From Escherichia coli (GTDB taxonomy: Bacteria; Pseudomonadota; Gammaproteobacteria; Enterobacterales; Enterobacteriaceae): a stretch of 64,000 nt of DNA. The stretch lies in the NCBI RefSeq assembly GCF_045037415.1, contig NZ_CP173438.1, one strand, 5' to 3'. The position numbers and the translations under genes are program-made. Numbering within the stretch: position 1 is the stretch's first letter; each line of letters starts with the position of its first letter. This document shows positions 59,563-64,000 of this stretch, in pieces. The notes beneath the pieces were generated by a model, which saw only the letters and a program-made list of their open reading frames with translations, searched no databases and was not told the DNA's origin.

Positions 59563-59621
59563 CAATACAATGATAAAAATATAAGTCTTGCTTTAATTAG
59601 AGCGCCCGTTTAAATTATTTT

Positions 59622-59733
59622 TGTGCAGTTGACGTAATTCATGAAAATTAACCGGTCTGTTAATCATTACGTTCACTGCACACCTTCATTTTTTCACACC
59701 TATCCACGCCTGAAAACTATGTTATAATCAGCA
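59622..59733 (+). promoter_or_regulatory. Inverted repeat and extended -10 promoter upstream of the RpiR-family gene
   Basis: GTGCAGTTGACGTAAT (59622-59637) facing ATTACGTTCACTGCAC (59663-59678); TGTTATAAT extended -10 at about 59725-59733. Confidence 0.4.
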
Positions 59734-59761
59734 CTTTCTGTCAGAATGAAATTTACTAATT

Positions 59762-60607
59762 ATGAATAACATAACCGTAAAAAGTCTGATTCAAAGCAAT
59801 TACCCTACACTGCATCAGGCGGAAAAAAAGGTCGCTGACTATATTCTTAGCCACGCACATGAAGTCGTGAACTATAGTGTCACTGAACTATCAGAAAAAA
59901 GCCATGCCAGTGAAGCGACTATCGTACGCACCTGTAAGAAATTAGGTTATCAGGGTTATTACCATTTAAAAATTGCATTAGCAAAAGAAGTCATTAATCC
60001 TGACAATAGCTATCCTGAAAATACCGACTTCAGCGATATAACATCTTTGGCAACCTTTTTATTAAAAAAACAGGCCGAAGATTTAATACAATCAACGCAA
60101 TTTTTTAATGCCGACGTGCTTGAGTCCATTCTCAAACTACTTGCTAATTGCGATACTATTTTCTTTTTTGCTGCCGGAAATTCAAACCCACTGGCCGTTT
60201 ATAGTGCTTATAAATTCAGCCAACTCGGATTAAAAACCGTTGTTCACGTCAGCCCGGAAATGCAAATTAATGCGGCATATTCTATGGGGAAACGCGACCT
60301 GGCGATTGGTATTTCTAACTCTGGCAGCACCAACTTAATGGTCGATATCTTTAAAGTGGTGAAAGAGCGCGGTGCCAAATCCGTTTGTATCACTAACTAT
60401 ATTAAATCTCCGTTATCAAAACTCTCCACCCATCAACTCAATACCGCGGTCAGCGATAAAATCTTCTTTGAAGCCTTCGACTCCACTCGCGTTCCGGCAA
60501 TGGGCGTTATTGATATGCTGGTGCTGTTGTTTATGTATAAAAACAAGGCGCATTACGAGAAATACCGCACCCGTGAAGAGTTTCTTGGCTCCCGTTTCAA
60601 GGGGTAA
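59762..60607 (+). CDS. RpiR/MurR-family transcriptional regulator (HTH plus SIS phosphosugar-binding domain)
   Basis: 281 aa with N-terminal HTH (SEATIVRTCKKLGYQGY) and SIS domain (IFFFAAGNSN). Confidence 0.8.
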   Translation: MNNITVKSLIQSNYPTLHQAEKKVADYILSHAHEVVNYSVTELSEKSHASEATIVRTCKKLGYQGYYHLKIALAKEVINPDNSYPENTDFSDITSLATFLLKKQAEDLIQSTQFFNADVLESILKLLANCDTIFFFAAGNSNPLAVYSAYKFSQLGLKTVVHVSPEMQINAAYSMGKRDLAIGISNSGSTNLMVDIFKVVKERGAKSVCITNYIKSPLSKLSTHQLNTAVSDKIFFEAFDSTRVPAMGVIDMLVLLFMYKNKAHYEKYRTREEFLGSRFKG

Positions 60608-60636
60608 AAGGTCATCCTTTCACCCCTTGTGCAGGT

Positions 60637-62634
60637 TTAGCTGTTCAGTAGCTCACGCGCCTGCGCCAGGACATTTTCCGGCGTAAAACCAAAGTGTTTG
60701 AACAACACATTCGCCGGAGCAGACTCACCAAAGCTCGTCATGCCGATCACTTTACCGTCCAGGCCCACGTAGCGTTCCCAGAATCCGGCGATGCTGGCTT
60801 CTACCGCCAGACGTTTGCGTACAGCTTTTGGCAATACCGACTCTTTGTACGCCGCATCCTGATTATCGAAACGCTCGGTACACGGCATGGAAACCACGCG
60901 AACTTTACGCCCTTCTTCCGTTAACGCTTTTGCGGCGCTGACCACTAACTCAATCTCTGAACCCGCAGAAATGAGGATCATCTCAGGCTGACCGTCACAA
61001 TCACTCAGTACATAACCACCACGCGCAATCTCTGCCAACTGTGCAGCGGTGCGCGGCTGTTGCGCCAGAGGTTGGCGCGTTAATACCAACGACGTTGGGC
61101 CATCTTTGCGCTCAATCGCCTGTTGCCAGGCCACCGCCACTTCCACCTGATCGCAACCGCGCCAGGTTTCCATATTCGGCGTCAGACGCAGCGACGCCAG
61201 TTGCTCAACGGGCTGATGTGTCGGGCCGTCTTCGCCCAGGCCGATGGTATCGTGGGTATAAACAAACACCGAGCGGATCTTCATCAGCGCCGCCATGCGC
61301 AGTGCATTACGCGCATATTCCATAAACATCAGGAAAGTACCGCCGTAAGGGATAAACCCACCATGCAGCGCAAGACCGTTCATGATGGCCGACATACCAA
61401 ATTCACGCACGCCATAGGAGATGTAATTCCCCGCCGGATTTTCTCCGGTGAAATCAACCGATTTCTGATGGCGAGTCAGGTTAGAGGGCGACAAGTCCGC
61501 CGAGCCGCCCATCAGTTCCGGCAGCATATCTGCGAAGTGATTGAGGCATTTCTGGCTAACCTGACGGGTTGCCAGCGCCGCCGGATGGGATTGCAGATCG
61601 TGCACATATTTCTGCATATTCTCGACCCAGCCAGCAGGCAAATCACCCTTCATGCGACGAGTAAACTCCGCCGCCAGTTCCGGCCACTGCTTCGCGTAGT
61701 CGGCAAACAGTGCATCCCATTCCTGTTGAACCTGCGCGCCTTTCTCGGTCGCATCCCATTCGGCATAAATTTCACCAGGAATTTCGAAAGGGGCATACGG
61801 CCATTGCAGACGTTCACGCACCAGCGCCACTTCATCTGCACCCAGCGCCGAGCCGTGGCAATCGTGGCTGTTGGCTTTATTTGGCGAACCAAAACCGATA
61901 ATCGTTTTGCAGCACAGCAGACTGGGCTTATCCGTGACGCTTTTCGCTTCACGCACCGCAGCATCTACCGCTTCTGGATCGTGACCATCAACGCCTTCAA
62001 TGACATGCCAGCCGTAGGCACGAAAACGGGCAGCCGTATCTTCAGCGAACCAGCCTTCTACGTGACCATCGATCGAAATACCGTTATCGTCCCAGATAGC
62101 AATCAGATTGCCGAGCTTCAGCGTTCCTGCAAGACCACAGGCCTCGTGGGAGATCCCTTCCATCAGACAGCCATCACCCAAAAATAACCATGTGTGATGA
62201 TCAACAATATTAAAGCCCGGTTTGTTAAATTCTGCCGCCAGCGCCTTCTCCGCAATCGCCATCCCCACCGCATTAGCTACGCCCTGCCCCAACGGGCCGG
62301 TGGTGGTTTCAACACCCGGCGTATAACCATATTCTGGATGACCCGGCGTGCGGGAGTGGAGCTGACGAAAGTCGCGAATATCATCCATCGACAGGTCGTA
62401 GCCTGTAAGATGCAGCAAAGCGTAAATCAACATGGAGCCGTGACCGTTCGACTGAACATAGCGGTCGCGGTTAAACCACTGCGGATTTTTTGGGTTATGA
62501 CGCAGGTGACGACGCCAGACCACTTCGGCAATATCCGCCATCCCCATCGGCGCGCCCGGATGACCGGAGTTCGCTTTCTGGATCGCATCAACACTTAACA
62601 TTCGGATGGCATTAGCCAGTAATTGTGAATTCAT
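60637..62634 (-). CDS. Transketolase, third paralogue (distinct from TktA and TktB)
   Basis: 665 aa with ThDP-binding motifs ([13 protein letters not shown], conserved His residues); roughly 60-65 percent identity to my recollection of TktA/TktB. Confidence 0.9.
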
Positions 62635-62684
62635 ACTTCAGCTCTCTCTGTCTGGCGGGCTGAAACCAGCCCGCTAATCTCGAA

Positions 62685-64000
62685 TTAGTTAGCACAGGCC
62701 ACTGTCATTTCTGTCGGGCGCGGTCTGCTCATTACGGTTTTGATTTCGTCGCGCAGGATTTGCGATTTGCCGCCAAATATCACCTGTACACCGCCATCAC
62801 CCAGTTTCACTAAACCCGCAGCCCCCAACTCCTTCAGCCGTTTTTCATTCACTTTCTTATCGTCTACCAGCGCCAGCCTTAGGCGTGTTGCGCAGGCATC
62901 CACATCTTCGATATTGTCGAAACCACCTACTGCTTCGATGATTTGGTATGGACGTTCTTCGCGCGTTAATGTGGTTGCAACGGCAATCTCTTCATCCTCA
63001 CGCCCCGGTGTTTTCAGATTCAACTTGCGGATCAGTACCCGAAATACGGTGTAGTAAATCGCTGCATAGCCCGCGCCTGCCAGGAACACCAGATACCACG
63101 GCGTGCGGTTTGGCATAACGCCATTCAGTACGAAATCAATAAGACCGCCAGCAAAAGGATGACCAATGTGCACATTCAGGATGTTCATCAGCACAAATGA
63201 AGTGGCATATAAGAAGATGTGAATGATGTAGAGAACCGGCGCTGCAAACAAAAATGCATATTCCAGCGGCTCCGTAATCCCGGTAACAAATGTGGTCAGC
63301 GCACCGGAGAGTAAAAGGCCTTTAATCAGCGCCTTACGTTCCGGTTTTGCTTCCTGATACATCGCCAACGCGGCGGCAGGTAACGCAAACATCATGATCG
63401 GGAAACGACCTGTCATAAACAGCCCCGCCGTCAACGGAGCACCGTCGCGCAATTGGGCAAAGAACACCGGAATATCGCCCGTCACCAGTTGCCCGGATTT
63501 GGTCATGTAGTCGCCAAAGTTGTAATAAAACGGCACGTTCCAGATATGATGCAGGCCAAAAGGAATCAGCGAACGTTCGCCAACGGCGTAAATAAAGGCC
63601 GCGAAGTTCGCGTTATGTCCACTGGTCACCAGCGTTGAAAGCGACGCCAGACCTTTTTGTACCGGTATCCACAGCCACGGCAATAAATAGCCGACAATAA
63701 TTGCCGCCACAGCCGTAATAATCGGTACAAAGCGTTTTCCACCGAAGAAACCAAGAAACTGAGGCAATTCAATATTGTGGAAGCGGGTATAGAGCAGATA
63801 AACAAAGATGGCGACAATCAGACCGCCAAACACTCCCGTTTGTAACGTCGGTACCCCGAGGATCATCGCATAATCACCGTTACTGGCTGCAACGGACTCC
63901 GCAGTAATGCCAAGTTGCGTTCCCATCGTGGCATTCATGATCATGTAACTGATAATCGCTGAAAGTGATGAAGAACCATCACCTGTCAGGCCAATCACAA
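62685..64000 (-). CDS. PTS EIICB component, glucose-family (PtsG/MalX-like), N-terminus beyond window end
   Basis: EIIC core with GITEPLEYAFLFAAP, C-terminal EIIB domain with phosphorylation-site motif DACATRLRL; aligns with PtsG from about residue 60, so the start lies past 64000. Confidence 0.8.
   Translation of the reverse strand, partial: VIGLTGDGSSSLSAIISYMIMNATMGTQLGITAESVAASNGDYAMILGVPTLQTGVFGGLIVAIFVYLLYTRFHNIELPQFLGFFGGKRFVPIITAVAAIIVGYLLPWLWIPVQKGLASLSTLVTSGHNANFAAFIYAVGERSLIPFGLHHIWNVPFYYNFGDYMTKSGQLVTGDIPVFFAQLRDGAPLTAGLFMTGRFPIMMFALPAAALAMYQEAKPERKALIKGLLLSGALTTFVTGITEPLEYAFLFAAPVLYIIHIFLYATSFVLMNILNVHIGHPFAGGLIDFVLNGVMPNRTPWYLVFLAGAGYAAIYYTVFRVLIRKLNLKTPGREDEEIAVATTLTREERPYQIIEAVGGFDNIEDVDACATRLRLALVDDKKVNEKRLKELGAAGLVKLGDGGVQVIFGGKSQILRDEIKTVMSRPRPTEMTVACAN

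Follow-up and report, generated by a model that had tools for sequence, protein, structure and literature searches.

In Escherichia coli, the established system for the uptake of N-acetylmuramic acid, MurR-MurQ-MurP, consists of an RpiR/MurR-family repressor with a SIS sensor domain, a small SIS enzyme that acts on the sugar 6-phosphate, and a glucose-family EIIBC permease of the phosphotransferase system (PTS), which has no EIIA of its own and uses Crr. Dedicated transketolases are known from other catabolic clusters, including the sulfoquinovose sulfo-TK, the D-apiose transketolase, the Listeria pentitol PTS operons, and the split TktC of Salmonella, and in these the accessory transketolase performs, or assists in, the cleavage of the carbon-carbon bond by which the pentose phosphate pathway is fed. 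The locus of concern here, positions 59563-64000 of a 64,000-nucleotide stretch of E. coli DNA (contig NZ_CP173438.1; the whole stretch is called the window), has the architecture of the MurRQP system with a transketolase added: an RpiR/MurR-family gene on the plus strand converges on a minus-strand operon that contains a hxlB-like gene, a PTS EIICB gene, and the transketolase gene tkt1. It is the right-hand, sugar-handling end of the tkt1 genomic island of extraintestinal pathogenic (ExPEC) and B2 E. coli. Taken as a whole, from the identity of the island through operon structure, regulation, and sugar route to its status as a reduced cluster, the locus is best explained, with moderate confidence, as a regulator-controlled sugar-uptake operon with an extra, apparently intact transketolase, carried on a horizontally acquired island.

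The tkt1 genomic island was described as a segment of approximately 16 kb between metE and ysgA, prevalent among B2 ExPEC, uropathogenic (UPEC), neonatal meningitis (NMEC), and avian pathogenic (APEC) strains (Li et al. 2012, BMC Microbiol 12:51; PMC3349570). A genome paper of February 2026 lists the island genes again as "GR 29," terms the SIS_PHI, PTS-IIBC, and RpiR genes uncharacterised, and for function cites only Li et al. (PMC12928451). Further literature searches found no later functional assignment for the island, which is used as an ExPEC/APEC marker while its role is still called "peptide nitrogen metabolism" on thin evidence 14 years on. The region in the window is this same locus, with the same site and genes and no sequence difference; it has 100% DNA identity to many ExPEC chromosomes at a position between ysgA and metE, and tkt1, the glucose-type PTS IIBC, the carbamate-kinase-like gene, the permease, and the regulators are all present. 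The locus has thus been known and named since 2012 and is annotated, although without a defined substrate. Published accounts treat tkt1 in isolation, and they contain neither the operon logic and intact active site nor the regulatory boxes and cross-phylum module described below.

Of 5426 complete E. coli genomes, 1135 (21%) have a match to the 4.4-kb interval, with an identity of at least 99% in 911 and of 95-99% in 224; in 1133 of these carriers, 80% or more of the interval is matched at an identity of at least 95%. In strain R11 (NZ_CP107155.1, 2883134-2888348) the match is in two pieces, with an IS1-family transposase beneath and two 'transketolase' features, so in at least one genome an IS1 element disrupts tkt1. 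The module was not found on plasmids, where matches were limited to tkt homologues of approximately 68-72% identity. The annotation of strain SK1144 places udp and ysgA to the left of the island, followed by an eight-gene block (cysteine hydrolase, DUF2877, FdrA, DUF1116, carbamate kinase, allophanate-hydrolase-related, cytosine-permease-like, and LysR), and then the RpiR-family gene, tkt, the ptsG-like gene, the hxlB-like gene, and metE.

Gene content and operon structure

The open reading frames (ORFs) and NCBIfam models bear out the convergent arrangement that the initial annotation had given, with an EIICB gene running out of the window (Table 1). That annotation had also held that genes beyond position 64000 were needed, and extension of the sequence gave the rest of EIICB, then a HxlB-like isomerase gene that it had missed, and then metE. 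The hxlB-like, EIICB, and tkt1 genes have the same direction, are separated by gaps of 41 nt and 50 nt, and are bounded by the metE terminator upstream and by a hairpin downstream, with transcription directed away from metE; on these grounds they are read as a three-gene operon in that order.

Tkt1 matches the transketolase equivalog model over residues 6-664, and its top PDB relatives by sequence search are all transketolases, the best of them bacterial, with E. coli TktA among these. It is 68.6% identical to TktA and 65.2% identical to TktB (approximately 68% in DNA); the identity between TktA and TktB is 75.5%. These values place Tkt1 as a third, more distant paralogue outside the TktA/TktB pair and not as a recent or near-identical duplicate, in agreement with the clear difference first noticed by the initial annotation. 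Fold, length, and domain order are the same as in TktA and TktB; however, Tkt1 is strain-variable and lies within a PTS operon. In a three-way alignment, 19 of 19 checked residues for thiamine diphosphate (ThDP), metal, catalysis, and phosphate binding are kept (H26, H66, H100, G114, D155, N185, I187, H261, R358, D381, S385, E411, F434, F437, Y440, H461, D469, H473, and R520); in TktA numbering, H26, H66, H100, D155, N185, I187, H261, E411, and H473 have ThDP, metal, or catalytic roles and R358, S385, H461, and R520 bind phosphate. Comparison of Tkt1 with the orthologues of two related loci, L004 and L021, gives a nonsynonymous rate (dN) of 0.075-0.105 with the synonymous rate (dS) saturated, and for all four module genes dN is far below dS, as under purifying selection. 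Tkt1 is accordingly predicted, from its sequence, to be a working, phosphosugar-specific transketolase. When Tkt1 was the query of a protein search, the matches were all near-identical variants from E. coli and carried no phylogenetic information.

The EIICB gene has 437 of its 502 codons within the window and the first 65 outside. The protein has the EIIC motif GITEP at residue 305 and the EIIB phospho-cysteine motif CATRLR at residue 434, and its relatives have the PF02378 and PF00367 architecture; it has no EIIA domain and no accompanying EIIA gene. It belongs to the PtsG/GlcB subgroup, scoring barely above the cut-off of the Gram-positive-type PtsG/GlcB model (TIGR02002, 606.9 against 591.8) and well below that of the E. 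coli PtsG model (NF008301, 443.8 against 647), and differs in this from MurP (NF007152, 41.6 bits against a cut-off of 516). Its identity to K-12 PtsG is 44% (PMC12928451). Close relatives are rare and include enterobacterial-type proteins (84-92% identical) and those of Serratia ficaria (85%), Sebaldella (70%), and actinobacteria, the last with the form EIICBA (62-64%); at lower identity the relatives are ordinary Firmicute PtsG/GamP proteins. The source records label many of the relatives as specific for glucose or glucosamine.

The SIS protein scores 205.1 bits against a cut-off of 160 with the equivalog model of 6-phospho-3-hexuloisomerase (PHI; TIGR03127, RuMP_HxlB) and is 40% identical (138 bits) to Bacillus subtilis YckF/HxlB (PDB 1m3s). 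Unlike MurQ, it is PHI/HxlB-like and not an etherase, and MurQ models give only approximately 20 bits. Although the model match and the identity are shared with HxlB of the ribulose-monophosphate (RuMP) pathway, the gene here has neither the 3-hexulose-6-phosphate synthase (HPS, HxlA) partner nor a HxlR regulator and is always linked to a PTS permease; its substrate may therefore differ from D-arabino-3-hexulose-6-phosphate.

The regulator has full-length matches to the HexR, MurR/RpiR, and AlsR models (E values of 1e-27 to 1e-31), none of which reaches an equivalog cut-off, and is a family-level member of RpiR/MurR; PF01418 and PF01380 are present on its orthologues. Orthologues flank the same module in L004 (79% identical), L021 (76%), S. 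ficaria L015 (67%), L018 (49%), and Sebaldella L016 (42%). The protein is presumed to repress the hxlB-like/EIICB/tkt1 operon. The leader of the SIS gene is 340 nt long, AT-rich, and starts with the metE terminator, and the order of elements within it is common to E. coli, L004, L021, and S. ficaria, at the same positions. A CRP-like box lies at -93 to -78 from the SIS ATG, with a perfect TGTGA-N6-TCACA in E. coli; it is followed by the palindrome ATGAAATAAAATTTCAT at -57 to -41, within which we read a -10-like TAAAAT hexamer (our own reading and not the output of a scan), and by another box, related to the first, which spans -26 to -7 and overlaps the ribosome-binding site. These two boxes of the type ATGAAAT-N3-ATTTCAT, conserved in the four loci, are probably operators of the RpiR-family repressor, and together with the CRP box they suggest the layout expected for a catabolite-controlled, repressor-gated operon for a secondary sugar. 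The presumed promoter region of the regulator gene, which separates the PTS/tkt module from the LysR gene at the end of the other half of the island, has only half-sites of the palindrome (ATGAAAT, TTCATGAAAAT), and the full palindrome has no occurrence anywhere in the window. The hairpin between the convergent genes includes the rpiR stop codon in its 5' arm and folds better than any of 200 shuffled sequences; it has no T-run, hence it is not listed by a simple terminator scan, and it is a candidate bidirectional terminator. No Rfam family, either riboswitch or small RNA (sRNA), was found within 59563-64000 or in the operon leader.

Table 1. Features of the tkt1 locus (window positions; window coordinate = L001 coordinate + 45562) and gene orders of related loci (contig positions of the block that holds the oxidoreductase, TIM barrel, and hydrolase genes). 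MFE, minimum free energy; GFO, GFO/IDH/MocA oxidoreductase; TIM, TIM-barrel protein.
Feature or locus	Position	Strand	Basis or gene order
AT-rich intergenic region, presumed rpiR-family promoter	59563-59761		GC 0.35-0.39 against 0.51 for the window
RpiR/MurR-family regulator, HTH_6 + SIS domain, 281 aa	59762-60607	+	ORF and NCBIfam
Hairpin in the 29-nt gap between the rpiR-family and tkt1 stop codons	60598-60629		MFE -22.7 kcal/mol, z = -5.29
tkt1, full-length transketolase, 665 aa, last operon gene	60637-62634	-	TIGR00232, 1008.4 bits against cut-off 682.25
Glucose-family PTS EIICB, cut at window end	62685-64000 (open frame 62685-63998; full 502-aa gene 62685-64193, window-equivalent)	-	ORF and NCBIfam
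hxlB-like single-SIS-domain gene, 185 aa, first operon gene	64235-64792 (window-equivalent, beyond window)	co-directional with EIICB and tkt1	TIGR03127
L021/L022			SIS, EIICB, Tkt, RpiR (as E. coli)
L004	12776-16890		SIS, EIICB, Tkt, RpiR, glycerate 2-kinase (MOFRL), alpha/beta hydrolase, AP_endonuc_2 TIM, GFO
Serratia ficaria L015	1177-5248		RpiR, glycerate kinase, hydrolase, TIM, GFO, SgrR-like regulator, SIS, EIICB; no Tkt
Sebaldella L016			SIS, split TktN/TktC, EIICB, RpiR
L018	424-5332		glycerate kinase (GlxK type), DeoR, TIM, GFO, hydrolase, SIS, TktN/TktC, EIICB, RpiB, EIIA-Glc, RpiR
Rhodococcus koreensis L025	10061-12818		GntR, SIS, EIICBA, HPr, EI, GFO, TIM, hydrolase, Tkt (actinobacterial type)
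Actinobacterial metagenome contigs L017, L026	10170-14108 (L017); 13142-15872 (L026)		EIICBA (+/- HPr, EI), GFO, TIM, hydrolase (+/- glycerate kinase)

Related loci in other bacteria

Orthologues of EIICB with an identity of at least 60%, from Enterobacterales, a Sebaldella genome, and Actinomycetota, always lie beside a SIS gene and/or a trio of genes for a GFO/IDH/MocA oxidoreductase, a TIM-barrel protein, and a hydrolase, and often also beside a transketolase of one of three unrelated forms and a glycerate kinase of one of two unrelated forms. The four-part module (SIS, EIICB, Tkt, and RpiR) is present in the low-GC bacterium L021/L022, where its proteins are 76-87% identical to those of E. 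coli, and in L004 and Sebaldella, with extended versions in L018 and Rhodococcus. The transketolases of the cluster are the gamma-proteobacterial full-length, split N/C, and actinobacterial forms, which are not orthologous and have identities to Tkt1 of 87/83%, 44% (the actinobacterial form), and approximately 35%. Since three non-orthologous transketolases and two glycerate kinase folds have been recruited, both activities appear to be selected by the pathway itself. The split form in Sebaldella and L018 is shared with the clusters known to have a dedicated transketolase, in which it is typical; however, transporters and accessory enzymes differ from those clusters, and Tkt1 is a single protein of the gamma-proteobacterial type.

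Relatives of EIICB with 59% identity or less are in other contexts, one of them with an aldolase and a lyxose isomerase, and those with 58% or less are in ordinary glucose PTS loci, beside a PRD antiterminator or HPr, or have no linked catabolic genes. Because of this break, the group is distinct from the housekeeping PtsG, and its gene neighbourhoods make the permease the marker of an orthologous group whose ties are to dedicated enzymes of catabolism rather than to the housekeeping uptake of glucose. In L018 an EIIA-Glc gene lies in cis, and in actinobacteria EIIA-Glc is fused to EIICB, which fits a Crr-type partner in E. coli.

The E. coli module appears to be a reduced version of this larger, undescribed sugar-pathway cluster. 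The hydrolase of the trio is of the PcaD-like alpha/beta type, and the glycerate kinase beside it is of either the MOFRL or the GlxK type. Sequence searches with the L004 TIM-barrel, oxidoreductase, and hydrolase proteins found no close characterised PDB homologue; the matches were generic or zero, and the families matched (inositol and DgpA-type dehydrogenases, enol-lactonases, and esterases) give no clue to the substrate. Literature searches found no relevant paper on the combination of GFO oxidoreductase, glycerate kinase, PTS, transketolase, and hydrolase, or on that of PHI, transketolase, PTS, and RpiR. The broader cluster of Serratia, the Sebaldella-related contig, and Rhodococcus, all of it outside the window, may represent an uncharacterised carbohydrate pathway.

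L004 (CACSKA010000003.1) is titled Chryseobacterium sp. 18061, while its module (7300-12530) has a DNA identity of 75-78% to those of E. coli and L021, its locus has a GC content of 0.51, and its gene order matches that of S. ficaria; the contig is probably from an enterobacterium, by way of a mislabelled or contaminated assembly. In S. ficaria L015, a SgrR-like regulator (SgrR_N + SBP_bac_5; 5447-7138) is directly upstream of the SIS-EIICB pair. The SgrR of E. coli senses glucose-phosphate stress caused by non-metabolisable PtsG substrates, and the gene in S. ficaria hints that the product of the permease can be toxic on accumulation.

Proposed pathway and alternative readings

According to the explanation we favour, a glucose-like sugar, predicted to be a specific one other than glucose, would be taken up and phosphorylated by EIICB, presumably with phosphate from the general EIIA-Glc (Crr) because no EIIA is encoded in cis. 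The sugar phosphate or its product would relieve repression through the SIS domain of the RpiR regulator, the PHI-like isomerase would shift the carbonyl to give a 2-ketose phosphate, and Tkt1, if catalytically competent, would pass carbon into the non-oxidative pentose phosphate pathway. The larger cluster would add the GFO/IDH/MocA oxidoreductase, a xylose-isomerase-like TIM barrel, an alpha/beta hydrolase, a glycerate kinase, and, in some cases, RpiB. The initial annotation had suggested an unusual sugar whose phosphate enters the pentose phosphate pathway directly. An unusual sugar is still the most reasonable reading, strengthened by the SIS-EIICB-Tkt-RpiR module in unrelated bacteria, although the locus is not new; direct entry is the part that has to be revised, since the HxlB-like gene is first in the operon and the likely route is therefore uptake, then isomerisation, then transketolase. 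The intact Tkt1 site, the CRP/RpiR-type operon, and the recurring module raise the question of which sugar induces and feeds the operon in urine, blood, or the avian host.

Several observations weigh against this explanation. Neither the E. coli island nor any related locus examined has an HPS gene, and if the isomerase simply yields fructose-6-phosphate, a dedicated transketolase is unnecessary and its usefulness is chemically unexplained. EIICB is just over the 'glucose-specific' cut-off, so that glucose or glucosamine could be its substrate, and the block of oxidoreductase, TIM-barrel, hydrolase, and glycerate kinase genes has no match in the 5426 E. coli genomes, so the module may be an incomplete pathway. 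The exact palindrome occurs once in 32 kb against 0.21 expected, and 19 of 100 shuffles have it at least once, which is not statistically unusual by itself; upstream of the SIS gene, a simple sigma-70 consensus scan gave no promoter; and the literature searched contains no enzyme assay on Tkt1, EIICB, or the SIS protein. The published phenotypes include counterparts to the complementation and growth screens that the initial annotation had proposed: in Li et al., growth of the K-12 tktA mutant BJ502 on arabinose was not restored by pBAD-tkt1, and a 760-condition phenotype array (Biolog) showed the tkt1 mutant to be no different from the wild type on carbon sources, the sole defect being with Pro-Ala and Phe-Ala as nitrogen sources (PMC3349570).

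The array data are nevertheless compatible with a sugar pathway, because the tkt1 mutant keeps the permease and the isomerase and TktA/TktB could replace Tkt1, and because the substrate may be missing from the arrays. The claim of "very little transketolase activity" for Tkt1 rests on the one complementation test (PMC3349570), and the 19 kept residues and the purifying selection appear to sit uneasily with it. In the same paper, the APEC O1 tktA mutant grew on arabinose while the K-12 tktA mutant did not (PMC3349570), and such growth is what an active extra transketolase would predict.

A more specific proposal, which we hold only tentatively, is that the E. coli module represents the most compact version of a PTS-dependent route, not yet described, for the catabolism of a sugar off the standard arrays, and that the full form of this route yields glycerate. 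In that full form, the oxidoreductase, TIM barrel, and hydrolase would degrade the sugar phosphate with glycerate as one product, glycerate being suggested as an intermediate because the cluster has recruited two glycerate kinases that are not homologous, and the PHI-like isomerase, transketolase, and RpiB would send the remainder into the pentose phosphate pathway. The genes of such a pathway are patchily shared among Enterobacterales, the Sebaldella genome with a related contig, and Actinomycetota. As chemical speculation, the substrate might be a 3-keto or other rare hexose, a heptose, or a glycerate-containing glycoside or ether. If true, the pathway could explain the in vivo fitness defect of ExPEC tkt1 mutants. 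1,5-Anhydroglucitol was considered as well and is no more than one candidate, as nothing links it to the operon and the literature gives E. coli another route for it, of the glycyl-radical type (YbiW/PflD).

Among the alternatives, the one that survives best, though we consider it unlikely, is that the permease is an extra PtsG/GamP-type transporter for redundant glucose or glucosamine uptake, with Tkt1 and the SIS protein raising pentose-phosphate capacity in the host for nucleotides, aromatic amino acids, or the heptose of lipopolysaccharide, and that no unusual sugar is involved. The glucose-specific IIBC model that EIICB passes, the source labels of its relatives, the resemblance of Tkt1 to an ordinary transketolase, and the lack of a carbon-source phenotype all agree with this, and a general role in metabolic fitness would explain why a signature-tagged tkt1 mutant was outcompeted in chickens (PMC3349570). 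However, the orthologues of at least 60% identity are always linked to catabolic enzymes, and ordinary glucose PTS contexts appear only at 58% or below. A phosphosugar-sensing RpiR repressor with a CRP box is typical of a secondary-sugar operon and not of a glucose permease, and the PHI-like isomerase has no role in glucose-6-phosphate metabolism.

It is also conceivable, although improbable, that the locus is an evolutionary remnant, inherited in part and no longer supporting growth on its original substrate. The four accessory genes that all 5426 E. coli genomes lack, the silent carbon arrays, and the IS1 element in one tkt are what such decay would leave, but the four genes that were retained are intact and under purifying selection, their promoter elements are conserved, and nearly all carriers (1133 of 1135) keep the region at high coverage and identity. 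The same minimal module also exists independently in L021/L022 and probably in Sebaldella.

More doubtful still is the conclusion of Li et al. themselves, that Tkt1 has lost transketolase function and acts in dipeptide-nitrogen metabolism, with the PTS and SIS genes as unrelated neighbours. The failure to complement BJ502, in which Tkt1 differs from TktA, and the Pro-Ala and Phe-Ala defect, which was reproducible and complementable (PMC3349570), are the evidence for it. The complementation was a single growth assay with no expression or activity check reported in the sections consulted, and the arabinose growth of the APEC O1 mutant fits a functional extra transketolase (PMC3349570). All of the cofactor, catalytic, and phosphate-binding residues checked are kept, the transketolase equivalog score is 1008 against 682 under strong purifying selection, transketolases have been recruited independently to the same cluster in three phyla, and no known chemistry joins a ThDP transketolase to dipeptide use. 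A partial RuMP system for formaldehyde fixation or detoxification, in which PHI and transketolase would be the RuMP enzymes and the PTS gene incidental, was rejected as very improbable: the SIS protein is above the RuMP_HxlB cut-off and transketolase belongs to the regeneration branch of that pathway, but the PHI-like gene is without an HPS gene in every locus examined, its constant partner is a PTS permease and not a C1 enzyme, and the regulator is RpiR and not HxlR-like.

Neighbouring features of the window

The other half of the tkt1 island lies at 51366-59562. Its cysteine hydrolase is isochorismatase/RutB-like, the carbamate kinase gene is 957 nt long, the allophanate-hydrolase-related protein is a stand-alone C-terminal domain of 129 aa, the transporter is of the NCS1 cytosine-permease-like type, and the LysR regulator is closest to PunR/AllS. 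The block resembles a paralogue of the K-12 fdrA/ylbE/ylbF/ybcF genes of the allantoin region and probably serves to gain ATP from an N-heterocycle by way of a carbamoyl compound. GC content falls to 0.35-0.39 at 59250-60250, a stretch that takes in the space between the LysR and RpiR genes and the 5' half of the latter (0.41 for the entire rpiR-family gene, compared with 0.55 for tkt1 and 0.51 for the window), and this drop suggests that the island is a mosaic joined near that point.

Upstream of udp, positions 43800-49239 have genes resembling those for 2-dehydro-3-deoxygalactonokinase and aldolase and then a Bug/TctB/TctA tripartite tricarboxylate transporter, and correspond to the small 'islet' adjoining the tkt1 island in Li et al. 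(PMC3349570). Ordinary E. coli features occupy 1202-40938, including an rRNA operon (5S, 20570-20685; 23S, 20788-23691; tRNA, 23888-23960; 16S, 24046-25587) and the sRNAs CsrC (10088-10341), Spot 42 (11370-11488), ES222, naRNA4, STnc370, and 'Erse' (40687-40938).

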